64,000 nt of DNA from assembly GCA_963726255.1 (NCBI GenBank), contig CAVSBL010000002.1:192001-256000 (forward strand), in the 5' to 3' direction. Below the pieces are notes generated by a model. It was not told the DNA's origin. It did not search any database and was given only the letters and a program-made list of their open reading frames with translations. This DNA is from Candidatus Bathyarchaeota archaeon (lineage in GTDB: Archaea > Thermoproteota > Bathyarchaeia > 40CM-2-53-6). The translations under genes and the position numbers were made by a program. Positions 7,791 to 64,000 of the stretch are shown piece after piece (within the stretch, counting starts at the first letter, position 1; each line of letters opens with the position of its first letter).

Positions 7791-7932
7791 TTCAGAATTC
7801 GAACCCCATCACCTAATGCCGACCGGCTGAGCATTCAGTACTTGATAAAGACCACTCCGGCAGTCGATACCGTCACGGCATGCTAGTTGAATCTAAATAT
7901 CTCCACGAAGAAATCCCGGCCTCTGACAGGAA

Positions 7933-8244: not shown

Positions 8245-8530
8245 AGACTTTCTCAGGGGTCTGAATCCGCATCAACCGTTTGAGAAAACGTTCGTTCGGG
8301 TCCACGTCGATCAAGCGTTTGTGGATCCGCATTTCCCAACTATCCCATGTATGTGTCCCTTCGCCACATGGGCTCTTTCGCGTCGGCACCCAAAGCCTCT
8401 TAGTCGGGAGCGGAATGGGCCCGCGCAGTTTCACACCCGTGCGGTCGGCGATCTTCATGATCTCGCTGCAAATGCTGTTCAAGCCCTGCGGGTCAGTGCT
8501 TGAAAGCCGAATTCTTGCCTTGTTTGCCAA
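8222..8530 (-). CDS. rpsJ: 30S ribosomal protein uS10
   Basis: [27 protein letters not shown] archaeal S10 motifs; follows EF-1alpha. Confidence 0.97.
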
Positions 8531-8639
8531 CCGAGTCTTCCGTCCTTCTAGGTGCGAAACAGCTCCCTAGGCCGGTGGGGCCAATAAAAAGCGTTCGCTA
8601 GCCGGAGTGGACTTGAAAAATAAATTCGGCCTGAGAAGC

Positions 8640-9965: not shown

Positions 9966-10093
9966 GCTTCATCTTTCCAATTTGTCTGATGATTTGCTAG
10001 TCAAGACTGGCACCCGTATTTAAGGGTTAGAATATTACGAAAGAGGAAAAGTGCCCGGCCGGGGAATTTAGGAAAACCTTCGTCGGGATTTGA

Positions 10094-10678
10094 TTAACGC
10101 GATGCTAAAGCCACTCGTTCCATTTCATCTCGCTTTCTTACGGCGAAGCTTCTGTTGTCGCGTTGGGCGGCGTAGGTGATTTCTTCTGCGAGGCATTCAT
10201 CAATAGTCCTAGGGTTGCTGTAGGCTGCTTGGCGCGCGCCGTCAGTCATGAAGCGCAAGGACATGTCGATTCTTCTAAGAGGGGCTATGTCAATGGAGAT
10301 GGGGTAGACAATTCCACCATAAGCTATTCGGGTGACATCCTCCGCCGGGGCTGTATTCTCCACGGCCTTCACGAGAACTTCTACCGGGTTCTTGCCGGTC
10401 TTCAGGCTGATTATGTCAAGCGCGTTTCGAACAATGCCAATTGCTTTGGTCTTCTTACCGCCTACCCTGCCGTGGCGCATCATGTTGTTGACAAGGCGTT
10501 CCACAATGTTGAGGGAGGCCTTTCGAAAGCGTTTATGCTCATGTCGCCCGCCGCTGTGCGGAAAAAGAATGGGTGTGACTGAGAGATATTTCTCGAGGCC
10601 CGGGTCTATAACTTCAATATTATCAGTGCTCCATTTCTCGAAGATCTTGATTTCCGGTGGCTTACGACTCATGGGCAC
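10094..10678 (-). CDS. rpsG: 30S ribosomal protein uS7
   Basis: PHSGGRH, IVERLVN, RTIDECLAEE, ERVALASR archaeal S7 motifs. Confidence 0.97.
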   Translation of the reverse strand: MPMSRKPPEIKIFEKWSTDNIEVIDPGLEKYLSVTPILFPHSGGRHEHKRFRKASLNIVERLVNNMMRHGRVGGKKTKAIGIVRNALDIISLKTGKNPVEVLVKAVENTAPAEDVTRIAYGGIVYPISIDIAPLRRIDMSLRFMTDGARQAAYSNPRTIDECLAEEITYAAQRDNRSFAVRKRDEMERVALASR

Positions 10679-10759
10679 AGACCTGATGTGAACTGAATTT
10701 TCGATAGCCTACAATCGGTCGCCGTATTAAGCGTTAACGATTTGAGGGGAGAACAAAAT

Positions 10760-11085
10760 GGCGATGGCAGCATCCCCGTTGAATTGGCATTCCACGCCCT
10801 AGCGGTTTCTCCAAAACCTCCTAAACTCTGTTATCCCATCAGCGCCTTGGCGCTCGCCTTACGACTGCTCTCTTCCGAGCCTCATCGGGTTCGACGATGA
10901 AGAGATGAATTCTTCCCTTCAGAAGGATTCTCCCCTGCGCTGGCCCGGTGGGGCAGAGTCTCATTGTTGGCTTTGGAAGCCTACTAAGGTTAGGAGATGA
11001 CTCTCCCTCGGGTTAACGGGTCCCCGCGTATAGCCGATTTCGGGTCACAGGGAACGGCTGGCTCCCCGATCCTCCTGCCATCGCC
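10760..11085 (-). ncRNA. ffs: Archaeal signal recognition particle (7S) RNA
   Basis: About 326 nt; ends pair (GGCGATGGCAG / CTGCCATCGCC); helix-8 signature GAACCCGATGAGGCTCGGAAGAGAGCAG; TATA upstream and T-tract downstream. Confidence 0.92.
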
Positions 11086-11108
11086 GGATGATTCTCAACT
11101 TAGTTGTC

Positions 11109-11115
11109 ATATAAA
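11109..11115 (-). promoter_or_regulatory. TATA box of SRP RNA gene
   Basis: TTTATAT about 24-30 nt upstream of the predicted 5' end. Confidence 0.65.
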
Positions 11116-11148
11116 TGCGGCAGTGATGGCGCACGGGGTTGGTTAAGC

Positions 11149-12072
11149 TCAAGCTGCGATGGCTTCGAGCATTATGCATGCTTCGCATAGCTGGTGCGGC
11201 GTTGGGTCGCCGCATTTCTCGCATTGATGCAACTCCAAGAGCGGTACTGTCTCAGCCAATGCGTCCCGTAGCCTCTCGGCGGTCCTTTGCAAGGTGAACT
11301 TGCTTCCCGGATGCTTCTGCTCCAGCTGGTTGAGGAAGGAGCGAATGTCGTTTCTTAGGGCATCATGCCCATGTGGGCATTCGATACTCTGAAATTCAAT
11401 CCCGCTCAAGTATGCGTAGAGAACTACTTCCTTCTCAGGCATGTCGCAAAGGGGCTTGAGCCGCGGAAGGAATTTACCCCTAGGGTCTCGAAGGACTGGG
11501 CCCGAGCGAACAATCCTCATCGGGTCGCCATGCAACATGTTCAGAAGAACCGTCTGTACTTCATCATCCAGGTTATGCGCGGTCGCGATTTTTGTGGCCC
11601 CAATATTAACGGCGGCTTTGTTGATGGCCTTACGCCTAAGTACGCCGCAGAATGAGCACGGGGTCTGACCCATCTTCATTCTTACGATCTCGTCGGTCGT
11701 AACACCGAAGAGTTCACGGTACGATACCACGACGTGTTCGACGTTGAGCTGCCGACAGGCGTTACGAGCGAGTTCGAGGCCCTCATCCCTGTATCCTTCG
11801 ATGCCTTCGTCCACGCTGATGGCGGTGAGATGGCTTTTGGGAAACCGCCCTTCCAACTTCACCAGGACATTGAGCAGAGTTAAGCTGTCTTTGCCACCGG
11901 ACACGGCGACAGCGACATGGTCGTCGTACTCTAGCATGTGGTTGTGTGTGATTGTTTTGCGTACCTTCTCTTCTAGGGCTTGGCGAAAGCACTTGCAGCA
12001 GAAGGAAACGCCTTCATACTGGCGAGTGTAGACCGCGCTTCCTGAACAGAATGTGCAAGTTGCAACTTGCAA
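11149..12072 (-). CDS. tRNA 2-thiolation protein (TtuA/Ncs6/CTU1 family)
   Basis: N- and C-terminal CxxC pairs, SGGKDS PP-loop, PCSFCGVLRR, TAHNLDDE. Confidence 0.92.
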   Translation of the reverse strand: MQVATCTFCSGSAVYTRQYEGVSFCCKCFRQALEEKVRKTITHNHMLEYDDHVAVAVSGGKDSLTLLNVLVKLEGRFPKSHLTAISVDEGIEGYRDEGLELARNACRQLNVEHVVVSYRELFGVTTDEIVRMKMGQTPCSFCGVLRRKAINKAAVNIGATKIATAHNLDDEVQTVLLNMLHGDPMRIVRSGPVLRDPRGKFLPRLKPLCDMPEKEVVLYAYLSGIEFQSIECPHGHDALRNDIRSFLNQLEQKHPGSKFTLQRTAERLRDALAETVPLLELHQCEKCGDPTPHQLCEACIMLEAIAA

Positions 12073-12076
12073 CTGC

Positions 12077-13249
12077 TTAGAACCTCAGGAAACCAAACCT
12101 GAGAAATGAGAACGCAATATTCAGAGCAAGGATGGAGTAAGCTGCGAGATTTGCTGCCGTACGAATTTCCTTCCTTCTACTAACTCCGAATACGTTGAGG
12201 GCTGTATCTAGGAATTTGTCTCCATCGAACGGGTACATGGGAAGCATGTTGATCAATGCGACGCTGACGAGGACGATTGAAAGCCAGAATTCCGCATGCT
12301 GAAGTATTGGAGGAAAGTCGCTTGAAAGGCCTGGGACCTTCGGGTTGTAGACTATGTTGTCTGTCAACCCGCTTATTCCGATGAGGGCATGGCTTGAGTT
12401 GGTTTGGTCCACGCCTGTTGTTACCGGGAAGCTGCCGCGTTGCGTCCCAACAACAATCTCTTGCCCAGGAACCACATTCGACATGTACTGACGTAGGTCA
12501 TTGATGCTCGTGATTCTTGTCCCATTTATGCTGGTCACTACATCACCGTCTTGCAATCCGGAAGAATGCGCGGGGAGGTTCGCCGGGACCGAGCCGATGG
12601 CAACGCCTGTTGAAGCAACGGTGTAGAATGGGGTAATTGTCGCCGAGAAGTTCACCAAAAGAAGAATGCAAAGTACTCCGAGTACGGCGTTTGTGAACGA
12701 ACCTGCCGCGAAGACCCGTAGCTTTGTTATGTCCTTAGCCTGGTTCAATTTCTCCTCGTCGGGTTCAACGAACCCTCCCATCAGTACGTGTGCGAAGAAG
12801 GCACCGGTGGATTTGAGCGGAACGTGGTCGGCAAGGCTCGCAATTCCGTGAGAGAGCTCATGAGTCACCACCACAACCGACAGGGCAAAGACAAGGTACG
12901 GAAAGGTTTCGAAACTCACGAAAACACCGGGGAGTGGGACTATGGGTTGAATCGAGACGGCCTGTTGCGTTCGATAGAAGAGGTTGAGCAGGTTAGTTAC
13001 AAGCTGGTAGAAGATGAAAGCCATTGCGCCTACCACAGTTACGACGCCAATGTTCCAGAAGGTTCGCCAGACCTTGGGCTTTGAATTCGAAATCCTCTCA
13101 ATTACGTTGTTCAACCGTGTCGTTCGGTAAATTATGTAGAATGGTAGGCCAGAGACGCCGAACCTCTCCGCTTTGAACGCCCACCACGCAATGGTAATGA
13201 TGACCCATATCGCGATGTAGACGGCGAAGAAGGAAAAAACGGATGCCAT
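12077..13249 (-). CDS. Site-2 protease (M50) with PDZ domain
   Basis: HELSH, GGFVEPD, NMLPMYPFDG motifs; PDZ-like GLQDGDVVTSING. Confidence 0.92.
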   Translation of the reverse strand: MASVFSFFAVYIAIWVIITIAWWAFKAERFGVSGLPFYIIYRTTRLNNVIERISNSKPKVWRTFWNIGVVTVVGAMAFIFYQLVTNLLNLFYRTQQAVSIQPIVPLPGVFVSFETFPYLVFALSVVVVTHELSHGIASLADHVPLKSTGAFFAHVLMGGFVEPDEEKLNQAKDITKLRVFAAGSFTNAVLGVLCILLLVNFSATITPFYTVASTGVAIGSVPANLPAHSSGLQDGDVVTSINGTRITSINDLRQYMSNVVPGQEIVVGTQRGSFPVTTGVDQTNSSHALIGISGLTDNIVYNPKVPGLSSDFPPILQHAEFWLSIVLVSVALINMLPMYPFDGDKFLDTALNVFGVSRRKEIRTAANLAAYSILALNIAFSFLRFGFLRF

Positions 13250-13306
13250 TCGAATTCTTCGGCAGTGAAATTAGGGTGTTCAACTAAAACCTTTCTGGGG
13301 CGCAAA

Positions 13307-13621
13307 ATGCCGCGAATCATCGTCCTCTCGACATGTGGAAGCACGCAAGAAGCCCGCATGATAGCGCGGGATTTGCTCGAAAGGAAACTTGCTGCTTGTG
13401 TCAACATTCTCCAAGTCAGTTCTTGCTACAGATGGAAGCGAAAGATAGTGAAAGAGCACGAATGGCTGATGATAATCAAAACAAACTCGAAGATTTTCCC
13501 AAAGGTGAAACAGCGAATTCTTGCTCTGCATAGCTATGAGGTACCAGAGGTGGTATCTCTTAAAATCGACAGCGGCTCTCAACCATACCTTGCATGGCTG
13601 GACAGGGAGCTACTTAGCTAA
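13307..13621 (+). CDS. cutA: Divalent-cation tolerance protein CutA
   Basis: KLAACVNI, YRW, HSYEVPE motifs; ATG at 13307. Confidence 0.92.
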   Translation: MPRIIVLSTCGSTQEARMIARDLLERKLAACVNILQVSSCYRWKRKIVKEHEWLMIIKTNSKIFPKVKQRILALHSYEVPEVVSLKIDSGSQPYLAWLDRELLS

Positions 13622-13713
13622 GAGTAGTTTCACGGTTGGAACTTCGGCACTTGGTCGATTTTTTCTTCTGATGTTTGAGAAATTCGGGGAACGCTTAATA
13701 GGCCGCCGCAAAT

Positions 13714-13890
13714 ATGCGCGAGCCCTTAGTCGGGAAAAAACCATTGACGCCGGAAGAAGAAGACAAAGTAGTCGAAGCGCTTGAGGAGTTGCGAATAAAC
13801 TATAACCTTAGACAGTGGCGTGTCTGTTCACTGATATGCGAGTCACTCGCAGACAAGTTCCGTTCAGTAGCTAAGACTGAGAACAAGTAA
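13714..13890 (+). CDS. Small hypothetical protein (58 aa)
   Basis: MREPLVGKKPLTPEEEDKVVEALEELRINYNLRQWRVCSLICESLADKFRSVAKTENK*; fills intergenic gap; CTTAATA TATA-like just upstream. Confidence 0.55.
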   Translation: MREPLVGKKPLTPEEEDKVVEALEELRINYNLRQWRVCSLICESLADKFRSVAKTENK

Positions 13891-13899
13891 CCTGGGCTG

Positions 13900-14178
13900 C
13901 TAGAGTTCCTTCAGCCTCTTGTAGAAATCTATTAACGCCTTAGTTTTCTCTTCGGCTTCGTTAAGCGTAAAAATCTTCATACCTTTATCGAATCTCTCGT
14001 AGAGAATTATCTTCTCCTTAACTAGTGGCTGAACAATTCTGGCGATTGTTGAAGGGGACAAGCCGAGAAGGTTCGCTAGGACTGCCTGGTTGAATACACG
14101 CTGCGCCCCTGCGTTCTCCAAGAAATATTCCAGGAGCTTGACCTGCGCTTTGGATTGGAAGACGTCGCTTAGTTTCAA
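13900..14178 (-). CDS. Winged helix-turn-helix transcriptional regulator
   Basis: NQAVLANLLGLSPSTIARIVQPLVKE HTH followed by wing. Confidence 0.8.
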   Translation of the reverse strand: MKLSDVFQSKAQVKLLEYFLENAGAQRVFNQAVLANLLGLSPSTIARIVQPLVKEKIILYERFDKGMKIFTLNEAEEKTKALIDFYKRLKEL

Positions 14179-14190
14179 GGAGCTGACCGC

Positions 14191-14868
14191 CTAGCCTGGC
14201 ACAACGCGAGTTCCTACCTGTTCGTTCCTTAACGCCCGGGTGACATTTGCTGGGGTTCGACCATCCAGGATTACTGTCGGGATCTTTGAGCGGGCTATGA
14301 TGCGTAGGGCGAGGGGGTCCATGAGGTCGTAGGCGCCGGCCGTCATGTCGGCGTTGGACAGGATTTGTGTTAGTTCGCTGACGGTGACTTCTTCCAGTTT
14401 CTTAGCTTTCTTATCCTTGCTTGGGTCGGTGGTGAAGACGCCTTCAACATTTGTGGCGTTCACGAAGAGCTCTGCACCGACCGTTTCGGCAGCGATTGCA
14501 GCCACTGCGTTGGTCGAGTGGCCAGGTGTGAGTCCGCCCATGGCCACGATTTTTCCGGATGCAAAGTAATGTTTCAACTCGCCGATGTTCACAGGGATTT
14601 CCGGAAAGGCGTACTCCCCCAAACCATCTACCAAGAGCCGTGCGTTCAGCCTGCTTACGAGTATGCCTATTTGATCGCATAGCGATTCCGAGACGCCCAT
14701 GTCACGAGCGGCTTTGATGTATGTGCGAGCGATTCTGCCTCCACCGGTGACAACTACGAGGTCGTATTCCCCAATCAGTTGCTTTAGCAGCTTCACGTAT
14801 TCGTTAACGAGAAGCTTTCCGGGTTCACCTGGAAAGGCGAATCCGCCGAGCTTCACGACCGCTTTCAA
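14191..14868 (-). CDS. pyrH: UMP kinase
   Basis: VVKLGG, VTGGG..AR, PGHSTNAVAA, NVEGVFTTDP. Confidence 0.95.
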   Translation of the reverse strand: MKAVVKLGGFAFPGEPGKLLVNEYVKLLKQLIGEYDLVVVTGGGRIARTYIKAARDMGVSESLCDQIGILVSRLNARLLVDGLGEYAFPEIPVNIGELKHYFASGKIVAMGGLTPGHSTNAVAAIAAETVGAELFVNATNVEGVFTTDPSKDKKAKKLEEVTVSELTQILSNADMTAGAYDLMDPLALRIIARSKIPTVILDGRTPANVTRALRNEQVGTRVVPG

Positions 14869-14982
14869 AATTCAGACCCGTCTTCATACTATTTCCTGGG
14901 TGTTATTTGATTTCTGAAGCTCGGCGTGATTAACCAACCTATATAAAATCCCGAAGGCTACCCATGCGCAAACGTGTTTCCA

Positions 14983-16245
14983 ATGTCGAATACGGCCATT
15001 TCGGATTCTGTGTCCCGTTTTAGGCTGAAACGGACATTGGAAATGCTGGATTCGAAGGAAGGGCGGGGCACCGAGCTCATAAGCCTCTACGTTCCGCCGG
15101 GGCGAAGGATCCACGAGGTGATGGCTAACCTGCGTGAGGAGTACGGTACGGCCTCCAACATCAAATCACGTACAACGCGAAAGAACGTTATGGAGGCGAT
15201 TGAAAGGGTGCAGCAACGCCTGAAACTGTTCAGAGAACCGCCGAAGAATGGGTTGGTTATCTTCTGCGGCGCAATTCCACATGGCGGCCCCGGGACGGAG
15301 AAGATGGAAACCTATGTTCTGGAGCCACCCGAGCCAATCAACGTTTACTTCTACCGATGCGACGCGAAGTTTCACATTGAACCTTTAGTGGAGATGGCTA
15401 CGGAGCGGGATGCTTTCGGGGTCATAGTCATTGATTCCACCGAGGCCGTTGTCGGCATGGTAAGGGGCCAAAGGATGGAGGTTCTGCGGGAATTCACCTC
15501 AGGCATACCGGGCAAGCATCGAGCGGGCGGCCAATCAGCCAGGCGTTTCGAGCGTATCCGGGAGCAGGCTATGAACGATTACTTCAGAAGGGTTGGAACA
15601 CACGCCTACGAGCTGCTAGTTAAGGTTCAGGGTTTGAAAGGCCTGATCATAGGTGGGCCGGGTCCGACGAAGCAGGACTTCGTGGAAGGGGACTACTTGA
15701 ACTACATGCTGAAGGAGAAGATTATGGCCACTGTTGACACGTCCTACGTTGGCGAGCAGGGCGTCGAAGAGATAATTTCCAAGAGCCAAGACGTCCTCAA
15801 AGGCGTCAGGTACCTGGAAGAAAAACGCCTCGTCCAGAAATTCCTCTATGAAATCGGCCATGAAACTGGCCTAGGGGTTTACGGGGAGACCCAGGTTAGA
15901 AAATTCCTGAACGCAGGAATAGTTGAGCTTCTGCTCGTTTCCGAGAAGATGAACATTCTGCACGTCTATACGAAATGTAAGAACTGCGGTGCCGTTGATG
16001 ATTCGCTGATACCGCAAGCAAACCTGGTTAAATTCGAACAGGACCTGATGGGTAGTCCCTGCAAGAAGTGCAACGCAACAGCCCTCTACATTGAGAATAC
16101 CAAAGATCTGGTTGACGAACTTATCGAGATTGCGGAGAAACAGAACGCCAACATCGCTGTTATATCGACCGAAACCAATGAGGGTGTGATGTTGAAGGAT
16201 TCCTTTGGTGGAATCGCCGCGATCCTTCGCTACAAAGCGTCTTAA
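14983..16245 (+). CDS. prf1: Peptide chain release factor aRF1
   Basis: GTELISLY, ASNIKS, GGQSARRF; Zn-ribbon insert in domain 3. Confidence 0.97.
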   Translation: MSNTAISDSVSRFRLKRTLEMLDSKEGRGTELISLYVPPGRRIHEVMANLREEYGTASNIKSRTTRKNVMEAIERVQQRLKLFREPPKNGLVIFCGAIPHGGPGTEKMETYVLEPPEPINVYFYRCDAKFHIEPLVEMATERDAFGVIVIDSTEAVVGMVRGQRMEVLREFTSGIPGKHRAGGQSARRFERIREQAMNDYFRRVGTHAYELLVKVQGLKGLIIGGPGPTKQDFVEGDYLNYMLKEKIMATVDTSYVGEQGVEEIISKSQDVLKGVRYLEEKRLVQKFLYEIGHETGLGVYGETQVRKFLNAGIVELLLVSEKMNILHVYTKCKNCGAVDDSLIPQANLVKFEQDLMGSPCKKCNATALYIENTKDLVDELIEIAEKQNANIAVISTETNEGVMLKDSFGGIAAILRYKAS

Positions 16246-17444
16246 GTGAAGCGTACCGAAGGGAATTCGCGCCTCAAACGTCGGACTTCCTTTCTGACCT
16301 TACTTGGGTCTTCGTTTCCAATCCACACTCGTGAAATCAATTCAGCTATTTCACCCATCTGGGTCTCGCGCATGCCCCGTCGCGTTTCCTCACTCGTCCC
16401 AACCCTTATTCCTACGTCGACGATGATGTTCGCCTCTTCAAGTTTCCTAGCCAAGCGGAAGCCCTCGGCTTCGGATGGCACGTCGACTACGACCTGGTGG
16501 GATTGGGTGAACCCAAGTTCCTTTCCAAGCAGCCTGACGCCGTGTTCATCCAGGGCTTTTGCGAGTGCTTTGCTGTTGCGCACTACCTGCTGTGCATAAC
16601 GTCTGCCAAACCTTTTCATTTCGTTGAGGGCAACCTGAAGCGCCGCGATCCGGTTCCAGTGGGCGTTGTCCACGATGGCTGGATGAACAGCATCCCGGAG
16701 TTTTTCCTCGTACGCGTTTGAGAGGATGATTCCGCCCTGTGGGCCGAAGAAACTCTTGTGTGTAGAACCAATCAGAACCTCCGCACCCTCTCGAAGCGGA
16801 TCCTGGAACTGGCCACCCGCAATCAGCCCTAGCACGTGGGAGCCGTCGAAGACGACCTTTGCGCCAACCTGCTGACAGACTCCGGTCAGCGCTCTGACGG
16901 GGTGTGGAAAGAGGATCATACTGGCTCCGAAGACTACGACGCTGGGTCGTTCCTGCTCTATAGCGGTGTTTGCTCGTTCCGCGTCGATATTGAAGATTCG
17001 TCTGTTGAAAGGAAATTCAAGAACTTGCAGCTGGTAGATTTTCGGATAACCCTCACTTGAGATGCCTGGATATCCACCGTTGTCCTTTCCCACCACCATG
17101 ATCTTGTCTCCACGGTTTGCCAACGCGGTTAGGGCGATCATGTCTGCGGAGTGGCCTGAGATTGGCCTAACATCCGCGTACTTGGCCCCGAAGACCTCTT
17201 TCGCGAGGTCCTCGGTTTCGGCCTGTATCTGGTCAGTGTACCTTGTTCCCATGTAGTAGTGTTCGTGGGACGTGTACCTATTTGCGAGGTCGCAGCTGAG
17301 CATCTGGCGTACTGCGGGGCTGGAGAAGTTCTCTGAAGGAAGTAGGTTTAGGCAGCTTTTCACTCGCCAATCTTCATGTTGACGGAGGAGCTTCTTCAGA
17401 GAGGATGGGACGGGGGCTCTTCCTGTGGTGGCATGGCGTTTCAA
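16242..17444 (-). CDS. glyA: Serine hydroxymethyltransferase
   Basis: LNLLPSEN, DGSHVLGL, GSTHKSFFGPQGG PLP-lysine motif. Confidence 0.95.
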   Translation of the reverse strand: MKRHATTGRAPVPSSLKKLLRQHEDWRVKSCLNLLPSENFSSPAVRQMLSCDLANRYTSHEHYYMGTRYTDQIQAETEDLAKEVFGAKYADVRPISGHSADMIALTALANRGDKIMVVGKDNGGYPGISSEGYPKIYQLQVLEFPFNRRIFNIDAERANTAIEQERPSVVVFGASMILFPHPVRALTGVCQQVGAKVVFDGSHVLGLIAGGQFQDPLREGAEVLIGSTHKSFFGPQGGIILSNAYEEKLRDAVHPAIVDNAHWNRIAALQVALNEMKRFGRRYAQQVVRNSKALAKALDEHGVRLLGKELGFTQSHQVVVDVPSEAEGFRLARKLEEANIIVDVGIRVGTSEETRRGMRETQMGEIAELISRVWIGNEDPSKVRKEVRRLRREFPSVRFT

Positions 17445-17485
17445 CGAAGCATTCCCAACACGGTGAGATGCAGTCGCCCCGCTGA

Positions 17486-17887
17486 TCAGACTCGTCTGCC
17501 GCGTCGACCGCCGGGCCGGCGTGTACCGTCATGGGGGATCGGTGTGACGTCCTCGATTCTGCCGATCCTGAACCCTGATCGGGCAAGCATTCTAATCGCC
17601 GCTTGCGCACCTGGGCCTGGGGTTCTCGCTTTGTGCCCACCGGGGGCCCTAACTCTGATGTGGAGGGATGTGATTCCTCTGTCTTTCGCTACCCGGGATG
17701 CTGCAGCGGCAGCTTGCATTGCAGCGTAAGGGGACCCTTGGAGACGGTCCGCCTTCACATGCTGTCCCCCTGCGCTTCGGGATATGGTTTCAGCGCCGCT
17801 GAGGTCGGTTATGTGGACTAGGGTATTGTTGAATGATGAATAGATGTTGGCTATGCCCCAGCGTTGAGGTATTTTCTTCTCGGACAG
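17486..17887 (-). CDS. rpsK: 30S ribosomal protein uS11 (apparent CTG start)
   Basis: Frame extends upstream of the ORF call: (M)[33 protein letters not shown]...SPYAAM...PGPGAQ...DVTPIPHDG...GGRRGRRV. Confidence 0.95.
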
Positions 17888-33972: not shown

Positions 33973-34099
33973 GGAGTCGGCAGCGGTCCGGGGCTCGCAT
34001 GGCCTTTCGGAACATACTACTACCCGAATCGCCTGAGAGATTCACTTCCGTGTTCGGAATGGGAACGGGTCCTAGCCCTCAGCTATGGCCGCCAACTCC
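33973..34099 (-). rRNA. rrf: 5S rRNA (stand-alone)
   Basis: GGCGGCCATAGC...CCCGTTCCCATTCCGAACACGGAAGT...; paired ends GGAGTTGGCGG/CTGCCGACTCC; TTTATTTA upstream. Confidence 0.95.
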
Positions 34100-56718: not shown

Positions 56719-57141
56719 GTGCCGGAGTTCGTAGAAATCAGCATTAAGTGTCACAAGCTCGCGAAAGGATTTGGAGAAGGAGAAGCTTTGGTCTCCAAGG
56801 ATCCTATCTGCTTCTACCTAGTCGAGCCGAAGACCGGTATCGTTAGAGAGAAGGGGCATCAACTCGAGGGCAAGTCGATCGCGGGTAAAGTGCTAGTGTT
56901 TCCGACGGGAAAGGCGAGTTCCGCAGTCCAAATGGACGGGCTCGTCAAGTTGTTAATCTATAAGAACGCACCTCGGGCCATGATTGTAACGGATGTGGAG
57001 CCAGTTCTCTTGGGAAGCGCGGTTCTGACTAAGATCCCGCTCGTTGACAAACTGGAAAGGAACCCATTCGAGGCCATTAGCTCCGGGGACTTCGTGAAAG
57101 TGGACGCTGAGAAGGGTTCAGTTATCGTGACAAAAGGCTAA
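56719..57141 (+). CDS. Aconitase X small (swivel) subunit, DUF126
   Basis: GEGEALVS..PI.F, GIV.E.GH.L.GKSIAGKVLVFP.GKASS. Confidence 0.9.
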   Translation: MPEFVEISIKCHKLAKGFGEGEALVSKDPICFYLVEPKTGIVREKGHQLEGKSIAGKVLVFPTGKASSAVQMDGLVKLLIYKNAPRAMIVTDVEPVLLGSAVLTKIPLVDKLERNPFEAISSGDFVKVDAEKGSVIVTKG

Positions 57142-57487
57142 TCGAGAATTTCTCGCAAACCAAATGTTAGGACAGGCCATCAGCCCTACTGTTTCTTTGT
57201 GGACTTGATGGTGAGGCCGAAGGCTTTTAGTCCTCTTTTGAAGGCAGAGCGGTCGGCTCGCACCGCGCGTCTTCCGTGCGGGAGACAGCTCAAACCTTGT
57301 GCAAGAGTCCTCATACTTGGATCAAAAAACAATTCTTCATTGGCCCAAGTCATCCTGTTCATACCCGGATTTCTCCACCATCATTCGGGATGAGTAACAT
57401 AGTTTGCTCCTAAACAGGCGACACCCCCATCCCTCAGGGCTTGAGGGCACGGAGAAGATTTTCAGCACATGTTATACACGTGCAGGA

Positions 57488-57507
57488 TTGGTGGGGCCGA
57501 AGGGACT
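57488..57507 (-). repeat. 20-bp direct repeat copy 2 (tRNA 3'-end-like att site)
   Basis: Identical to 51200-51219; partial third copy TGGTGAGGCCGAAGG at 57209-57223. Confidence 0.85.
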
Positions 57508-58065
57508 CACTGCGTATACGAAGTGGGTGTTACTCAATTGGGCCGTATTTCCTATGAGCAAGGCATGTCACTCCTTGAGCGACGATATACGCGGTCTTCC
57601 TCTTAGTGTTTGCGCGGCTGTCGGGCAATGTTGAGTTCAAATTGGTCTGCTCGCACCACTAGACCCACACACACAATTACTTGAACGACCGCGGGAGTTC
57701 AAATTCGGACGCCCGCGCCAAAATACCGCACACAAATGCTGCAACATGCTTGACAATCAAAGAGTGATCGGGCGCTAGCGACTTCGAAGGCCAGGATAGT
57801 TCTTGATTGCGAAAACCGAAAGTTGGTCGTCGCGAAGGCTTTCCAGTTCCCACGGTAAATTCGTCATTGGTGTTGCGGTTCCGAACGCTACCCATGATGG
57901 AGCAGCAGTTCCTCCAGTAGTTCTCTGAACGGCGTTGGCGACATTCTTTCCGAGCTTCTTCAAGATAAGTCAGATCGTCTGGCTGAGTGGTCGCCCCCAG
58001 CAGGAAAGTTTGAATCTGCAGATCACTGCTTAGTTAGACCCTGGAAGTACAGAGAGGAGAGCACG

Positions 58066-58410
58066 ATGAGCAACGAACAGGTGGCACCTGAGACGAAAGG
58101 TGTTACGGTGAAGTTACTTGCAACGGTTGACCTTGGCCCTGAGATCGAGGGCATGGCAGGGCGCCAACTTCGAATGCGTATGGTGACCATCGAGCCTGGA
58201 GGCGTCATCGGCCCGATTCACGACCATAAAGACAGACCAGGCACCGTCTACATACTGCAAGGAACGATCACTGACCATCGAAATGGAGTCGCTACGGACT
58301 ATGGGCCGGGAGTGGGCTGGCCCGAGGATAGGAACACCACACACTGGCTTGAGAACAGAGGAACGATTCCGGCGGTGGAGATCTCGGTCGACATAGTCAG
58401 GCAAGAGTAA
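58066..58410 (+). CDS. Cupin-domain protein (cargo)
   Basis: VTIEPGG..GP.HDH..RPG.VYILQG, HWLEN; GGAG SD. Confidence 0.88.
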   Translation: MSNEQVAPETKGVTVKLLATVDLGPEIEGMAGRQLRMRMVTIEPGGVIGPIHDHKDRPGTVYILQGTITDHRNGVATDYGPGVGWPEDRNTTHWLENRGTIPAVEISVDIVRQE

Positions 58411-58523
58411 GCTCAGGCCCTCTGGATCATACTACTGGGACTCACACTACTCACCGATCTTCGGATGGATGTTCACTGCCTGTCCGGGACTACTGAACTT
58501 TGCAGTTGTCGTTCGTCGTTCAT

Positions 58524-58567
58524 GAAATTGTGTGTGTGGGGTATGCTGGTGCGCACACACACTTTTC
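58524..58567. repeat. Back-to-back element ends separated by a target-like 15-mer
   Basis: GAAATTGTGTGTGTG-GGGTATGCTGGTGCG-CACACACACTTTTC. Confidence 0.75.
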
Positions 58568-58596
58568 TAACGAAGGACGTACAACGACAGTTCAAG

Positions 58597-59874
58597 TCAT
58601 TTCTTTACTAGCCCGTACCTGCTCTTGAAGTCGAATACGTTCACTACATAACTCGGACTGACAGCTTTCGCAATCCGTTCACTAGTCGAATCAGTTCTGA
58701 GTTCGAGCATCTTTTCTCCTATATTATAGCCGAGAGCCGCGAGAAGACCACCTACTGCGCCTATAGGACCAGCCGCAACTGTTCCCAATACTGCTATTCC
58801 AATCGTTATCCCTCCACGAATGAATCCTGTCTTTGATCCAATTGAGTCTGCTTCCTCCCATAATTTGTCCAAGATGTCTCCGAGTTTCTTCCCATTGGAT
58901 AGAATGTCCGAGTATTCTTCACTCTTGACTGCTTGGAGAAGGGAGGTTGATACTCCGTACAAATCGGTCTCACTGAACTTGTCACACATAGCTCTGCAAG
59001 CTTCATAGCTTGTAGGATAGGGAGCGAGCTTTTCCATGAGAAACTTGCCAATCTCTGCTAGGTTTGGGCTTGGAGCTTGTGAAACAAGAAGAGCCATGCC
59101 ATCTGGTGTCTTCATTGCAAGTTGTTCATGGCTTACGTTGTGAATTGCTCCAAAAATATCGAATGTTGGCTCCAATATCAATTGTACGCACAAGTTCGTA
59201 ACGTCCGCCAATTCTCCGAATTCGTCGTAGACCAATCTATCGCGAATGAATTCTTTCAAGTCGCGATAGCCCAAAAGCTCTAGCGCTGCGTATGTATCTG
59301 CAAATTTCTCCCACGCGGTTTTTGTTATATCGACTGCAGGGCCATATTTCCGCATGTAACGAGGGTCGAGATTTCGTCTGTTTGCGGTTGGGTATATGCG
59401 AATTCTGCAGAGAGTATCATATTCAATCAAAGCATCCCTATATCTTACCAGATCTGATGCGGAAAACTCTTCCTTATGAATTACGCCGTACCACTTTCGC
59501 GGCTTCAGGTCTAGAACCGGATCAAGGAAGTCCAATCCCGCATATTCCTCCGGGTCGCCGTTTAGAACAAATGCAACTCGCCCGGTATCCTTGGCAAAGT
59601 CTGCTAGACGGTCGACATCAGATGCATCAAACCCATGATATTTACTGAAATCGCCTTCTGAGTATGGCGCTACCGGAATTAGAAGGGTTCCAAAGAGCGG
59701 GATTTGCGGCCAAATACTCTCGCAGATCGCGCTCCATGCTATTGGTTCCCGAAGTTTAGGGTATCTCTGCGTGTAGTATGCTTTCATTTCAAATGGATCC
59801 ATTGATGACTTACTTAGTCGTGCGATTTCTTCACGTTCTTTGGCTGAGTAGTCTAACAACGATTCTTTATCCAA
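58597..59874 (-). CDS. Hypothetical protein with C-terminal Gly-rich hydrophobic hairpin (cargo)
   Basis: 425-aa ORF; GGITIGIAVLGTVAAGPIGAVGGLLAALG near C-terminus; family not recognised. Confidence 0.75.
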   Translation of the reverse strand: MDKESLLDYSAKEREEIARLSKSSMDPFEMKAYYTQRYPKLREPIAWSAICESIWPQIPLFGTLLIPVAPYSEGDFSKYHGFDASDVDRLADFAKDTGRVAFVLNGDPEEYAGLDFLDPVLDLKPRKWYGVIHKEEFSASDLVRYRDALIEYDTLCRIRIYPTANRRNLDPRYMRKYGPAVDITKTAWEKFADTYAALELLGYRDLKEFIRDRLVYDEFGELADVTNLCVQLILEPTFDIFGAIHNVSHEQLAMKTPDGMALLVSQAPSPNLAEIGKFLMEKLAPYPTSYEACRAMCDKFSETDLYGVSTSLLQAVKSEEYSDILSNGKKLGDILDKLWEEADSIGSKTGFIRGGITIGIAVLGTVAAGPIGAVGGLLAALGYNIGEKMLELRTDSTSERIAKAVSPSYVVNVFDFKSRYGLVKK

Positions 59875-60057
59875 GAGGTTGAGCCATTAGCCTCATCGAC
59901 TCAACACACTAAATAACTATTTTTCGTCGTCGGTATCCTAGTCCGCACGCCACGATGACGGTTCGATTTCTGTCGCTCGCACCATTGATACCACACACAC
60001 TAAATGACGGCAACTCAAATTACGCTACTCGCACCATTGGAATAGCCTGAAGGCGAA

Positions 60058-60350
60058 ATGAGCAATGAAGGAGAGCTAGTGGCCCAACGCATGTCAAAGA
60101 ATCAAGAATCAATTGATAATGCTTTTCTATTCTTGTTGACTTCGTTGACTTTGCTATTCGGAGTCTTGAACGACGCTGTTGACGGATTGCGAGCTGTTCT
60201 TCTTCAGATCCCGCTAATTATCTCAGGTTTCTTTTTTCCATTCTATATTGGCTACGTGCGAGGAGTAATAGACCCCGGTTCCAACGTAGAAAGGGTTCGA
60301 GGATGGATATTCTTTACATTTGGAGTTGCCACCTACGCATGGATGTTCAC
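60058..60350 (+). pseudogene. Probably truncated membrane-protein gene
   Basis: About 95 codons with three TM-like segments, then the frame runs into GC-rich hairpins and element-end repeats; 3' boundary approximate. Confidence 0.5.
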
Positions 60351-60805
60351 GGACTTCCGGGTTGTATGTTTCCGGGCCCGATTTCTGCTATGCGACACAT
60401 GCGGCCGGGTCCGGCGAAGGACCCTTGGCGGGTCTGACTCCGGAGGCCGGGCCGGAGAGGGGTTGTTAGGGGACACTTCCCCTAAACAGCAAACACCTAC
60501 ACCAACCGTTTCAAAGTGTGTGTGGATCTCTTGGTGCGACCGGCGCAATTTGAACCGCAGGGTCAAACGTAATTGTGTGTGTGCGCACCACTAGACCGGG
60601 GGTATAACATAGGGGCGGTTTTGGGGTGTCCACGTGGATGGGTTGGTGGGGACGTGGAAGTCCACGTGTACGCGAGATAATGAGACCTGCTTGACTACCA
60701 ATTGAATCGCTGTTACCAAAGTTTCGAAAAGCATGGAACACTACAGGTATGTTGATCTTTAGCCAAACCTCTAGGTGAGCTATAGAAAAGAACCTGTTCA
60801 GTCCC

Positions 60806-61198
60806 ATGGCGGCTTTGGATATGAGGAAGTCAACGATAATCTACGCCCTTCTATGGTTCCTAACTATTGTAGCGTTTTCTGTTCCATGGTACACAGTTGG
60901 TGGGCACACGTTTACCGGCTGGAATTTTGTCATTCCATTCTCAGCCAGCTATCTGATAGGCATCCTTCTGGGTCTCATAGTCCTGATTACTAAGCGATGG
61001 GCGTTTGGTCTTACCATTGTTGCAGGAATCTTGATGATACTGGGAATAGTAGGTGCGGGCATTGGCGGTGGAATAAGCGAAGCACTTAGCGGAGTAAGCG
61101 GTCAGACCACCACGGCCCAAGGTGGAATAGGTTTTGCTTTCGTGATTAGTTTGGTATACCTTGTCGGCGGAGCTGTTCTAGGTAAGCGAATGGAGTAG
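60806..61198 (+). CDS. Small multi-TM hypothetical membrane protein
   Basis: 130 aa, four hydrophobic segments, PWYT motif. Confidence 0.7.
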   Translation: MAALDMRKSTIIYALLWFLTIVAFSVPWYTVGGHTFTGWNFVIPFSASYLIGILLGLIVLITKRWAFGLTIVAGILMILGIVGAGIGGGISEALSGVSGQTTTAQGGIGFAFVISLVYLVGGAVLGKRME

Positions 61199-61341
61199 CG
61201 ACTCGACAAACAACGGAAATAGGTTTAGCATGAGACATGGGGATTAAGGGTCCTTCCGCTGTCGTCGGATCTATTGGTGAGGTCCACGGGTACAACCGAG
61301 CAGAAATTCGTCGACTATCAAGTTGACTCTATGAATAGATG

Positions 61342-64000
61342 TTAGCCGCGTGGAGTCGAAAATTTCTCGTCATCCGATAATTCAAGCTTAATCATTTCAT
61401 CGATATCATGTATGCAAGAGTCAGCAATTACTCGGACAGTTTCTGAAGATACCTGATCATCCTTGATTTTCTGAAAGATCGCCTTACGTCGGACCAGCTC
61501 AGGCGGAGGTTCACCGGGTCTCGCCGTATATGCATGAGGCGGATGCGTCTTTCGGTAGAACATTGACTCAACTTGATTTCTTAATCCAGCTGAGATGCCC
61601 TCAGATCCAACCCTCGCGAAGATATTCGAATTATCTTCTTTGAGTTCTAGAAATTCACATGCGGTTAACGCGTTCTCGATTCTATGAGCGTTCAGCTGTC
61701 TATCGATGTATGTCGTAAGACTCGCCTGCATTTGAAGTCGATTCGGGTCTGCGAAGGGTAGGAAGAGATTGCGTAGGCACATTTGGTAGATTGCGTCTTT
61801 GCTGTACCATGCTATGACTGCGTCCATTAGTTTGTCGAATGCCTCGACTGATTTCGTCAAACTCGCTACTGCGTCGATTCCATCTCCAGGTATTGGCTCA
61901 TACTGGTAATCTTTCATGCGAATTGTTGAGAGGCGTTCCTGAAGGAGAAAGATTACTGACTGTATATCAGAGCACACAAACGAGATGATTCGTTGAGAAT
62001 CGTAGTCTAAGTTGGGCATCTCAACTAGTCGGTTCAGTAATGCCCTTCGCAGTAGTACAAGCTCATGTGAAGGAAGTGCCCCAATGATGTTTCCCTTCCG
62101 CAGGAGAACCAAAGACACAGCGAAGCTTAGCTGCTGATAATCATCCTCCATAGAAACTCCAAGACGCAATAGCTTAGTGAGTAAGTACACACTCTGAAAC
62201 TTGTCGAATAAGAAATCGAGATAGCTAATTACTTGATATTTGGTGCCGGAGCTTCCGAACGTCAGTAATTTGTGGAGCCAAAGGTATAAACTGAAAGAGG
62301 AAATTGTGTTCTTGGTAGTCGATTTAGTTCTGTTGTCGTCAATACGACTGAACTTGTCAAAGACGGCCGCAACGATCGTTTGATACCCTCCTTTGTCAAG
62401 TAATTCTATGAATCTACTATAGGTTCGAGACCTTGTAAATTGAAACCTGCATGTACATGCTAAAAAGGCCTGCACTTTTGACTCGGAAGTTCTCGGAAGT
62501 TCTGAAATAGTCTCCTCAGCCATCATTCGAAGGAAGCGCCCATCGAGTTCTGCAAGAGCTGCTTGCATTTCGTCCTTGAAGCGAGTCGGGGTGTCGGCCC
62601 AAAGTGCATTGTTGCTTCTAATTTCCGCGAACACTGGTCTCTGTTGATGAACCCATGAGGTTAGTATCGGAGCGGTCACACGGTTGGGCGGCTCCCGCAG
62701 CGATTTGTCCAATGACTTAAGAAATCGCAAAACGTCGCCAGGTGTAGGATACTTCTCTGGCAAAGTGGAGGTTATTTTGTCGAATTCTTCCGGTAAGAAT
62801 ACTCGTCTAGACGTGAATGACTGAATGAACCATTTCCAACGCCCATCCTGTGGTGCGTTTTTCCTCAGATTCTCGAAGCTCTCTGAGATGTAATATGGCG
62901 ATAGGTAGTGACTGAACATCAAATATTCAGAAGATCTAGGCATCGCTTCCAAGAACTTCTCAGTTTCCTCTGTACCAGGAGTGCTCTGTGCCCACCAAGT
63001 CAAGAACAGGTTCTCAATTTTGTTCAGAACTGCAAAATCCATATCTGATCTGATTGTGTTTCCTATTAGTCGAGTTACATGTCTCCTTTCTTGAGCAATT
63101 CTTGATTCAAGTGGCAAGGCACTCTCACTAACCCTTTGCAATCGAGTCTTTCCGAGAACTTCAGCAACATCTAGTGCTGCAATTCTTGCCTTTGGTGAAG
63201 AATGTTCGATCATAAGCGAGAGAACTCTAAGGGCTTCGTCTCTAATCGCTGTCACCTCGGCGGTTTGTGAAAGAATCTTTTCTCCGAACGTCACCCTGAG
63301 TGTCCTGGATTCTGAATATTCATGGGAACCAGCGAGAACCTCCGAAAGAGCTGGAAAGAGCAGCTCGACTTGTGTGTCCGATCCGTTTATCCAAGTTTCT
63401 AGGATCGACAGCGCCTCGCAGATCTGAGATGCGCTGTTCTGCAAAGGAGAGACGCATGAACGTATCAATGATTTTGTCTTGTAGTTGTCGTATCTGCCTG
63501 GAATGTTCTTCCTGTGAAGTAGATTGATGATGTCAAGTATTGTTGATCGAGATTGACGTGTTGAGATTAATTGCGCAATGACAGGTCCGTAGTCATCCGT
63601 TGATAGTGGCAGACGAGGGTCGTCGTCATCTCTTTCTATGTAACATCGAAGAAGGCGTGCACATTCGGTCGGAACGATCGGGGTTATGCTAGGAATCGCG
63701 TTGAGGACTCCTCGCATAGATCGGTGAGGTCCTTCGTTCGGATGTAATGACCAATGTAAAACATGTCCCGCCAATACTCGTCTAAGGCTTGGAACTTCTG
63801 CGTATTTAGCGGCTGATGCTAAGTTGTTCAGTGCGTTCTCAGGGGCGGTTTGAAGCCAGGGGTCAACCAACGAAATCAGGTTTTCTACATTCATGTTCTG
63901 AATCTGTCGCAAAAGGTACAGGTCGCCCTTCATGTCAGGGTTGAACCGGACCGTGTCGCCAATTTCTCTCAGTATTCCTGCTCTGATCATTCGATTCAAT
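61342..64000 (-). CDS. Large helical hypothetical protein (5'-truncated by window edge)
   Basis: >885 aa open frame reaching the window end; no catalytic motif visible in this part. Confidence 0.75.
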   Translation of the reverse strand, partial: LNRMIRAGILREIGDTVRFNPDMKGDLYLLRQIQNMNVENLISLVDPWLQTAPENALNNLASAAKYAEVPSLRRVLAGHVLHWSLHPNEGPHRSMRGVLNAIPSITPIVPTECARLLRCYIERDDDDPRLPLSTDDYGPVIAQLISTRQSRSTILDIINLLHRKNIPGRYDNYKTKSLIRSCVSPLQNSASQICEALSILETWINGSDTQVELLFPALSEVLAGSHEYSESRTLRVTFGEKILSQTAEVTAIRDEALRVLSLMIEHSSPKARIAALDVAEVLGKTRLQRVSESALPLESRIAQERRHVTRLIGNTIRSDMDFAVLNKIENLFLTWWAQSTPGTEETEKFLEAMPRSSEYLMFSHYLSPYYISESFENLRKNAPQDGRWKWFIQSFTSRRVFLPEEFDKITSTLPEKYPTPGDVLRFLKSLDKSLREPPNRVTAPILTSWVHQQRPVFAEIRSNNALWADTPTRFKDEMQAALAELDGRFLRMMAEETISELPRTSESKVQAFLACTCRFQFTRSRTYSRFIELLDKGGYQTIVAAVFDKFSRIDDNRTKSTTKNTISSFSLYLWLHKLLTFGSSGTKYQVISYLDFLFDKFQSVYLLTKLLRLGVSMEDDYQQLSFAVSLVLLRKGNIIGALPSHELVLLRRALLNRLVEMPNLDYDSQRIISFVCSDIQSVIFLLQERLSTIRMKDYQYEPIPGDGIDAVASLTKSVEAFDKLMDAVIAWYSKDAIYQMCLRNLFLPFADPNRLQMQASLTTYIDRQLNAHRIENALTACEFLELKEDNSNIFARVGSEGISAGLRNQVESMFYRKTHPPHAYTARPGEPPPELVRRKAIFQKIKDDQVSSETVRVIADSCIHDIDEMIKLELSDDEKFSTPRG

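Follow-up and report, generated by a model that had tools for sequence, protein, structure and literature searches.

What brought a 2.9-kb unit with perfect terminal repeats and no recognizable mobility gene into the genome of a Candidatus Bathyarchaeota archaeon? The unit occupies positions 57652-60597 of the 64,000-nucleotide stretch of contig CAVSBL010000002.1 analyzed here (the window), and an initial annotation, made from the letters alone, had taken it for a non-autonomous, trans-mobilized mini-casposon or gene cassette. Casposons are defined (Krupovic et al. 2014, via PMC9939771 and PMC8464041) by a Cas1 integrase, a family B DNA polymerase (PolB), terminal inverted repeats (TIRs), and a target-site duplication (TSD) of about 13-15 bp; this and the other statements drawn from published work refer to the available parts of the cited papers. 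Very probably, the unit is non-autonomous and casposase-less and belongs to a family of casposon-type transposons that multiplied within this archaeal genus. It has no transposase of its own, and it has its ends, its target, and the length of its duplication in common with Cas1-bearing elements of sister genomes.

Outer repeats and cargo of the unit

Both sets of terminal repeats lie exactly where they had been reported, a 14-bp direct repeat on the outside and 15-bp inverted repeats immediately inside it. The boundaries and genes of the unit are as follows.

57633-57651, plus strand: tRNA T-loop-like leader, GAGTTCAAATTGGTCTGCT, directly upstream of the left TSD copy
57652-57665, plus strand: left TSD copy, 14 bp, CGCACCACTAGACC, identical to 60584-60597
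57666-57680, plus strand: left TIR, CACACACACAATTAC, which doubles as the left end of sub-element A
58066-58410, plus strand: cargo gene for a 114-amino-acid cupin
58597-59874, minus strand: cargo gene for a 425-amino-acid protein of no known family
60058-60594, plus strand: open reading frame (ORF) of 178 amino acids, its 3' part running through the terminal repeats
60569-60583, plus strand: right TIR, GTAATTGTGTGTGTG, the exact reverse complement of CACACACACAATTAC
60584-60597, plus strand: right TSD copy, 14 bp, CGCACCACTAGACC

The outer TIRs pair over 15 nucleotides at 100%. Within the window, CGCACCACTAGACC has two perfect copies only, and with up to 3 mismatches it gives 11 matches against 4.53 expected, a number reached by none of 100 shuffles. 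The 15-mer also has two perfect copies, a third end with 1 mismatch lying at 58524-58538 on the minus strand, and with up to 3 mismatches its matches number 6, where 1.11 are expected and no shuffle out of 100 gives as many. The source genome (G000) is a 2.42-Mb metagenome-assembled genome (MAG), estimated to be 98.5% complete with 9.3% contamination, in which the outer-end variant CACACACACAATTAC is confined to this locus. Two defining features of casposons, the TIRs (here perfect over 15 bp) and a duplication of about 13-15 bp (here exactly 14 bp), are therefore present in the 2.9-kb element.

The window sits within a 2.36-Mb contig, and both outer junctions are spanned without differences by Logan contigs of run X1 (57300-57687 and 60416-60900) and run X2 (57617-58328 and 60243-60687). 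This support consists of independently built contigs and not of raw reads, and both runs come from one study that possibly includes the source sample. Three other Logan joints, 57665 to 58532 (X5), 57674 to 60574 (X2), and 57676 to 59958 (X5), were considered as empty sites or excision products and rejected because their short sides, of 24-29 letters, fall within repeats.

The interior had been described as holding nothing except cargo, and our searches agree. The cupin (Cupin_2, E 1e-09) is the only Pfam match, and no mobility gene was detected in Pfam, NCBIfam, or PADLOC searches, nor was an integrase, cas1, or PolB gene recognized by Pfam. The 425-amino-acid protein has no match in any of these three collections; in the protein atlas it falls into clusters of "hypothetical protein" only, with DUF6236 assigned to 16% of the members of one cluster. 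The 178-amino-acid ORF matches no family and is probably a small membrane gene, apparently truncated.

Matched duplications, Cas1-bearing partners, and the landing site

A search of the genome and its relatives for the left junction, written as CGCACCA-N7-CACACAC, showed that the unit is one of many. G000 contains 25 exact junctions, or 42 with at most 1 mismatch, which form roughly a dozen arrays; the reversed control pattern gives a single hit. The junction occurs in all 22 other genomes of the genus and, G000 included, in 29 of the 41 genomes searched across the order, the control giving only one hit among the 41.

Do the 14-mers behave as target duplications? Among 57 left-right junction pairs (one strand, within 20 kb), 8, from 5 loci, have identical 14-mers, whereas shuffled 14-mers yield 0.47 identical pairs on average and 4 at most, none of the 2000 shuffles reaching 8. 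From locus to locus the seven variable bases change, but they agree at both ends of an element, and one matched pair shares the rare variant CGCAACA. At one locus three identical 14-mers (C2:1359489, 1358981, and 1358112) have cassettes of 494 and 855 bp between them. The bounded elements of G000 extend from 289 bp (C2:1561431-1561719) up to 2.9 kb and none carries a recombinase; their cargo comprises glyoxalase, SnoaL-like, DUF998, and cupin genes and a weak TspO-like match.

A multi-copy recombinase near the sites was considered as a candidate enzyme and dropped, since an all-against-all BLAST of the 452 ORFs within 2.5 kb yielded cargo paralogues only, namely TATA-binding protein (TBP), KaiC-like, aromatic lyase, glyoxalase, and CBS proteins. 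Four TBP paralogues lie at C2:121096-121665, 438918-439514, 997378-997974, and 1773698-1774375; at the protein level the first three are 82-88% alike and the fourth is about 55% alike to them. Three of the four are directly beside 14-mer sites, C2:997378-997974 having no listed site nearby, which suggests that transcription-factor paralogues travel as cassettes.

A plausible source of the enzyme was found in the sister genomes, 12 of 22 of which encode Cas1 in ORFs of 400-440 amino acids, the highest count for a single genome being 11 matches. Five of the 15 Cas1 matches of at least 200 amino acids lie inside elements of 7.2-16.3 kb bracketed by matched 14-mers, in the order leader, 14-mer, end, cas1, opposite end, and the same 14-mer (with at most 1 mismatch). 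Three of these five have (CA)n/(GT)n ends and two have (CCG)n/(CGG)n ends. The (CA)n TIR, unusual as it had seemed, thus recurs on elements that carry an integrase of their own, and the search for an integrase with the same TIR led to Cas1 inside (CA)n-ended elements bracketed by leader and 14-mer. Four of the five bracketed elements can be given individually.

L063, 5142-13784, 8.6 kb: cas1, NT5C-type nucleotidase, and peptidase A4, with a truncated second cas1 in tandem
L065, 4260-20570, 16.3 kb: cas1 and the defense-type genes AIPR, DndB-like, N6/N4 DNA methylase, and HATPase-domain protein
L072 (G015:C3), 6566-17558: (CCG)n/(CGG)n-ended Cas1 element with the same leader and 14-mer target
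L073 (G004:C45), 8078-15249: (CCG)n/(CGG)n-ended Cas1 element with the same leader and 14-mer target

The reference Cas1, of 416 amino acids, matches PDB 6opm with an E value of 6.7e-71 (residues 15-410 vs 22-411 of 431), and its best CRISPR Cas1 match gives 3e-25; 6opm is the family-2 casposase of Methanosarcina mazei (PMC8464041). The casposases of the (CCG)n class are 57-58% identical to this reference and the other (CA)n-ended ones 64-73%. G000 itself holds a (CGG)n right end beside a 14-mer at C2:455252. Cas2 was detected in none of 5 Cas1-bearing genomes.

Insertion at such a site is seen directly in one comparison. A 739-bp insertion at C2:1561377-1562115, which is a decayed element with the 289-bp element nested in it, is absent from G021, where the flanks are 96-97% identical, and from G015. 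These two genomes have a single site on the minus strand, the leader GATTCAAATT...ACCGGT followed by CGCGCCACCGTAGC, and the G000 insertion is placed exactly between leader and 14-mer. An empty-site allele is thus available for a related insertion.

The cassettes are also more alike between species than their surroundings. The cupin block at 58033-58418 is 97% identical in G015 and 98% in G004, with the adjacent AcnX genes at 83% and 77%, and further cassettes are 94-98% identical between species. The G004 cupin belongs to a cassette with a copy of CGCACCATTAGACC on either side, and the G015 cupin lies between two near-identical 14-mers with no (CA)n ends. The borders of the cupin homology fall inside the cassette and not at the inverted repeats, so gene-sized blocks seem to be exchanged between cassettes. 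Run X5, a soil metagenome from another study, has 57670-58538 (cassette A with its ends) and not 58631-59961; uncovered parts in this run, as in run X3, are no evidence of absence.

What does the presumed enzyme recognize? The TSD had been described as starting at a tRNA-like CGCACCA end. The target is not the 3' end of an actual tRNA gene: ARAGORN, with and without introns, found no tRNA gene at the left end of the element, and Rfam gave no match at E<=1 in 57000-61400. The resemblance of CGCACCA to a tRNA end nevertheless stands. Upstream of the 14-mer, GAGTTCAAAT lies exactly 9 nucleotides ahead, the spacing between T-loop and acceptor in a tRNA. The tRNA genes of G000 encode CCA, four of them end in ...CGCACCA, and their T-loop-to-CGCACCA distance is also 9 nucleotides. 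Two left contexts of the 14-mer occur, either a leader or a (GT)n run that is the right end of a preceding element (tandem). We examined 66 exact junctions from G000 and the fetched loci. In the 30 that bear a leader (consensus cgGTTCAAATTc..tGCc), GTTCAAAT is found 9 nucleotides ahead of CGCACCA without exception (30/30), and the other 36 are without the GTTCAAAT motif. The seven bases after CGCACCA are semi-conserved, with the consensus.tagacC. Because the spacing is that of the genome's own CCA-encoding tRNA genes, the landing site appears, as far as the letters tell, to reproduce the 3'-terminal third of a tRNA gene (T-loop, 3' acceptor strand, discriminator A, CCA) and to continue with these seven bases. 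Since no tRNA gene is present at the locus, the target is a dispersed, portable mimic of a tRNA 3' end, often carried within the elements themselves.

An RNA reading of the site was rejected: besides the lack of an Rfam match, folding of the leader region gave no signal (z = +0.6 vs shuffles), and only the tandem junction at 58500-58600, folded as DNA, folded strongly (z = -3.9, long hairpins).

A tRNA gene does occur elsewhere in the window. A tRNA-Ser(GCT) gene with a 99-nucleotide intron, detected by ARAGORN only when introns were allowed, lies at 6091-6275 on the minus strand. It ends in ...CCCCGCACCA, followed by TAATACT, the 8-nucleotide CCCACACA, and an inverted CGCACCTTTAGACC at 6062-6075; the region 6062-6275 resembles a scar left by casposon-type insertion, here at a genuine tRNA gene. 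The window also contains genes for the archaeal signal recognition particle RNA and 5S rRNA, at 10764-11081 and 33975-34096 (minus strand).

A composite of cassettes and its possible histories

The interior of the 2.9 kb shows that it is not a simple element: it is a composite of at least three cassettes. The internal features are the following.

57695-57727, plus strand: leader-like GAGTTCAAATTCGGACGCC and degenerate 14-mer CGCGCCAAAATACC, then GCACACAAA; 73% to the outer leader and 14-mer
58515-58539, plus strand: right inverted repeat of sub-element A, ...CATGAAATTGTGTGTGTGG, pairing with the left end
58540-58553, minus strand: internal 14-mer CGCACCAGCATACC, inverted; on the minus strand a tandem junction (GT)n-14-mer-(CA)n
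58554-58595, plus strand: left inverted repeat of the second sub-element, CACACACACTTTTCTAACGAAGGACGTACAACGACAGTTCAAG, with the subterminal pattern of Cas1-bearing elements
59959-59991, plus strand: internal leader CGGTTCGATTTCTGTCGCT and 14-mer CGCACCATTGATAC (59978-59991), occupied, CACACACAC coming next
59992-60043, plus strand: short left-end module CACACACACTAAATGACGG, then its own leader CAACTCAAATTACGCTACT and unoccupied 14-mer CGCACCATTGGAAT (60030-60043)
60420-60524, plus strand: element end of about 105 bp closing in GTGTGTGTG, homologous to the long inverted repeats of a G015 Cas1 element
60525-60558, minus strand: inverted landing site, leader GCGGTTCAAATTGCGCCGGT and 14-mer CGCACCAAGAGATC (60525-60538), occupied on the minus strand

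The left end of the unit forms an inverted repeat of 26 nucleotides (92%) with 58515-58540, which bounds cassette A, and the stretch at 57695-57727 appears to be a landing site carried within this left end. Three internal CGCACCA-N7 words stand beside (CA)n/(GT)n, at 58540-58553 (minus strand), 59978-59991 (plus strand), and 60525-60538 (minus strand). The first of them, CGCACCAGCATACC, is a common 14-mer variant in the genus and may be a duplication carried along from an earlier location. Two parts of the interior resemble Cas1-bearing elements in particular: the subterminal pattern of those elements, CACACACAC-TTT.CTAACGACG.ACGACGGTTCAAAT, recurs at 58554-58595, and 60420-60524 aligns with both long inverted repeats of a 16.3-kb Cas1 element of G015, its identity being 83% (105 bp) in one case and 89% (75 bp) in the second. 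A third element, at 59992-60524, stands between two convergent sites, each with leader and 14-mer, with no matching duplication around it, as would fit a deletion between two related insertions.

The flanks contain further repeated stretches. A sequence of about 85 bp, GGGGGTATAACATAGGGG...GTCCACGTG..., at 60598-60680 directly follows the right 14-mer; it is single-copy in G000 and 77-89% conserved in G006, G007, G008, and G018, where it always directly follows a 14-mer that is itself preceded by a leader or (GT)n. In G007 and G008 the homology begins exactly after the 14-mer and the 14-mers differ, so this sequence is possibly the end of yet another element type. To the left of the unit, a stretch of about 60 bp (57367-57428) belongs to repeats that are 87-97% alike in several genomes of the genus, and it occurs once more in G000 (C2:86839).

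From the anatomy of the elements and the published biochemistry of casposases, the following mechanism can be proposed. A family-2-like casposase, provided in trans by some Cas1-bearing member of the family, would recognize the tRNA-3'-end mimic, i.e. the leader GGTTCAAAT and 9 nucleotides followed by CGCACCA-N7, and would join the 3' ends of ...GTGTG-3' DNA at both borders of the 14-bp segment; gap repair would then duplicate the 14 bp. The requirement at the ends seems to be no more than a few (CA)n/(GT)n bases, which would allow single-gene cassettes of 0.3-3 kb to be moved, and since many elements carry their own leader and 14-mer just inside their ends, new insertions would nest and stack into arrays. 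The composite would then consist of cassette A (cupin, 57666-58539), the inverted 14-mer at 58540-58553 as a tandem-junction duplication from the previous site, and a second cassette at 58554-60583 (425-amino-acid gene) with the nested, partly deleted third element at 59992-60524. In the simplest history, two tandem elements would have resided at another site with the 14-mer CGCACCAGCATACC, and the pair would have moved as one piece via its outer CACACACACAATTAC ends and landed inverted, duplicating CGCACCACTAGACC. The casposon-type assignment is supported by Cas1 elements with the same leader, duplication, and (CA)n ends; for the putative mobilization in trans the evidence is indirect, namely the insertion polymorphism and the near-identity of cassettes in different species.

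Several observations weigh against this reading. No Cas1 gene or fragment was found in G000 (PF01867 search; best E 1.9 in a whole-genome tblastn), so an enzyme for mobilization can only have acted in trans, at an earlier time, or from a copy that was lost or extrachromosomal. G021, the closest relative, is likewise without Cas1, yet G000 and G021 differ by an insertion. In the sister genomes, 10 of the 15 Cas1 matches are unbracketed within the DNA fetched, some of them being fragments and two, from a 40-43% clade, lacking such sites in their vicinity. The two bracketed elements of the five that were fully annotated, L063 and L065, contain no PolB, and the PolB matches in 5 sister genomes fall outside them. 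At the locus itself, no empty-site allele of the 57652-60597 insertion was found in G021 (97%) or G015; synteny with both stops at window position 57196, before the element, and what lies beyond it is unrelated or located elsewhere. The duplication at the one empty/filled site is imperfect (11 of 14 positions), and 49 of the 57 candidate junction pairs are unmatched, many arrays therefore being rearranged. The internal 14-mers (GCATACC, TTGATAC, and AGAGATC) have no matching partner and two are inverted, so a simple insertion model needs extra steps, i.e. deletion or recombination. Finally, borders of homology lie off the element ends, both for the cupin block and for a 724-bp cassette, and some differences between G000 and G021 depart from the pattern: a 2.2-kb indel at C2:870662-872869 of G000 has no repeats, a 318-bp insertion at about 6866-7182 of L098 (G021:C14) has a 7-bp direct repeat, and an insertion of about 140 bp at 3007-3139 of L100 (G021:C171) has a (CA)n start and a 6-bp flanking repeat. 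Such off-pattern borders and indels near arrays indicate that other processes, e.g. recombination and deletion, also shape these regions.

Some of these points recur in an alternative that keeps both family and enzyme and denies that the 2.9 kb was ever one mobile unit: a small element, either cassette A or a short one with two ends, would have inserted and produced the duplication, and the rest would have been added in place later, as further elements nested in it, repeated ends deleted the DNA between them, and other arrays recombined with it. The three extra internal sites, unpartnered and in both orientations, fit such a route, as does the fact that the best inverted-repeat partner of the left end is 58515-58540 (26 nucleotides) and not the outer right end (15 nucleotides). 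It also agrees with the presence in run X5 of cassette A without the 425-amino-acid gene, and with a cassette order that differs between G000 and G021 at another array. However, tandem insertion at the leader-proximal copy predicts the CTAGACC 14-mer after A, where an inverted, different 14-mer is seen, and the outer 15-bp ends match each other perfectly and are of a variant restricted to this locus. We regard accretion as a genuine possibility, although on the improbable side; insertion of the composite as one piece by its outer ends, giving the perfect duplication, is most likely.

It is decidedly unlikely that the 14-mers are instead core sites of a tyrosine or serine recombinase, with integron-like cassettes and with Cas1 a mere passenger of larger elements. 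In favor of this view, elements with a tyrosine integrase typically have direct repeats at tRNA 3' ends (PMC6563490), the arrays of single-gene cassettes are reminiscent of integrons, and the (GT)n-14-mer-(CA)n junctions look like sites with inverted arms. However, a search for Phage_integrase (PF00589, E<=0.01) gave no match in G000 and one in each of 14 control genomes (14/14), the Xer-type recombinase of G000 being either too divergent or missing; this negative covers tyrosine integrases, serine recombinases and DDE, HUH, and IS110-type transposases, among other integrase families, not having been searched for. Moreover, the seven variable bases are the same within a pair and different between pairs, as expected of a duplication and not of a fixed core. 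The (CA)n and (CCG)n end classes share the target and the 14-bp repeat, each bracketing a casposase gene, and insertion occurs exactly at the leader/14-mer border.

The same border argues against a non-mobile, structured intergenic repeat flanking a gene cluster, such as a repetitive extragenic palindrome (REP)-like sequence or a tRNA-end-mimicking signal for transcription or RNA processing. The motif is indeed intergenic, genus-wide, and partly tRNA-like, and tandem junctions fold into long hairpins. However, presence/absence polymorphism at the leader/14-mer border, matched 14-mers far above chance, casposase genes within bracketed elements, and a leader that folds no better than shuffles and has no Rfam match make this explanation very improbable. 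Mis-joining of repeats in the MAG is hardly credible, although the estimated contamination and the loose contig ends at 57675, 58537-58562, and 60573-60590, where simple repeats break short-read contigs, might suggest it, because the X1 and X2 contigs bridge both outer junctions unchanged, the window lies in a long contig, and the architecture recurs in many genomes.

Comparison with known systems

The element's (CA)n end, T-loop leader, 14-bp duplication, and tandem stacking match published properties of casposases. Family-2 casposons make duplications of about 14 bp, and a family-1 casposase makes a 13-bp duplication and uses a leader and a ruler motif (PMC8464041). The casposase of Aciduliprofundum boonei needs a leader motif upstream and only five 3'-terminal residues of the element (PMC6614799); what it recognizes in tRNA-Pro is the T-psi-C-loop repeat, and artificial casposons built around a resistance gene are integrated, frequently as tandem copies (PMC9939771). 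A mini-casposon of about 1000-4000 bp with 20-bp repeats has also been described (PMC8464041). Most described casposons are single-copy (PMC9939771). In the available part of a survey of thaumarchaeal mobile elements, all casposons have cas1 and polB and non-autonomous forms go unmentioned (PMC6563490); elsewhere the term "non-autonomous" refers to TnpB elements (PMC6452270) or to derivatives of insertion sequences (PMC13343696). We found no description of natural casposase-less casposon derivatives, nor, in the available text of the papers, of casposons in Bathyarchaeia or of a portable tRNA-mimic target; both results are provisional, subscription journals being mostly uncovered.

Casposons are the proposed ancestors of the adaptation machinery of CRISPR (clustered regularly interspaced short palindromic repeats). 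The literature, as far as it was available, presents them as rare and mostly single-copy and invariably gives them a cas1 and a polB of their own. In this genus a casposon-type family appears to be proliferating, and each genome offers it dozens of landing sites. Unusual features are the master copies with a solo Cas1 and no PolB, of which the annotated 16-kb L065 carries defense-type genes, and the many casposase-less single-gene cassettes common to several species. If our interpretation is true, casposases move passenger DNA in nature with minimal ends, as in vitro work predicted, and a tRNA-end mimic can turn into a portable integration site. Leader-headed repeat-insert-repeat arrays would then arise from casposon activity alone, a step postulated between casposons and CRISPR arrays, and the leader, 14-mer, and (CA)n ends would be natural substrates for site-specific insertion tools.

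Among known systems, the closest are the family-2 casposons, i.e. AciBoo-C1 of A. boonei and that of M. mazei, to whose 6opm structure the integrase of the sister elements is closest. Both have a duplication of about 14 bp, a target resembling a tRNA 3' end with, apparently, a T-loop-like leader, TIRs, and tandem insertions (PMC8464041, PMC6614799, PMC9939771, and PMC6563490). In contrast to them, the window element has neither cas1 nor polB, its Cas1-bearing relatives L063 and L065 are without PolB, the target is a dispersed portable tRNA-end mimic instead of one tRNA gene, sites number dozens per genome with up to 11 cas1 matches in one, and the ends are simple repeats, (CA)n or (CCG)n.

Laboratory mini-casposons, as the available accounts present them, likewise have a gene between short terminal repeats, a casposase acting in trans, and a leader with a duplicated target; those are artificial constructs, whereas the elements seen here are natural, numerous, varied in cargo, and nested. 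Miniature inverted-repeat transposable elements (MITEs) are similar in lacking a transposase, in having the ends and duplication length of a partner, and in their many copies, the smallest here being 289 bp. The family differs from MITEs in that a whole gene (cupin, glyoxalase, SnoaL, KaiC-like, or TBP) is present in most copies, insertion is site-specific, and the presumed enzyme is a Cas1 homolog and not a DDE transposase.

Integron arrays share with the present ones mostly single-gene, promoter-poor cassettes with short conserved sites between them, and cassettes that are more identical between species than core genes. Unlike integrons, the arrays studied here come with no IntI-type tyrosine recombinase (no PF00589 match in G000), they have duplicated 14-mers with (CA)n/(GT)n ends in place of attC hairpins, and their sites are in both orientations and scattered over many loci.

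Quite speculatively, the family might not consist of decayed transposons alone and might be a natural gene-capture platform, in which portable leaders and 14-bp repeats serve a Cas1-family integrase to stack nearly any (CA)n-ended, gene-sized DNA into arrays exchanged between species. Such a platform would be an archaeal counterpart of integrons in function and, with its leader, duplicated repeats, polar stacking, and solo Cas1 with no polymerase, a living intermediate between casposons and CRISPR arrays. In CRISPR arrays the repeats measure about 23-50 bp, the spacers are short, and the genes for adaptation are those of Cas1-Cas2. The arrays of this genus differ from them in their 14-bp repeats, in gene-bearing inserts of 0.3-16 kb, and in the count of Cas2 (0 of 5 Cas1-bearing genomes). 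The two are alike in the succession of leader, short repeat, insert, and repeat, in a repeat duplicated at each insertion, here presumably by a Cas1-family integrase, and in runs of identical repeats, which reach three 14-mers in the present case.

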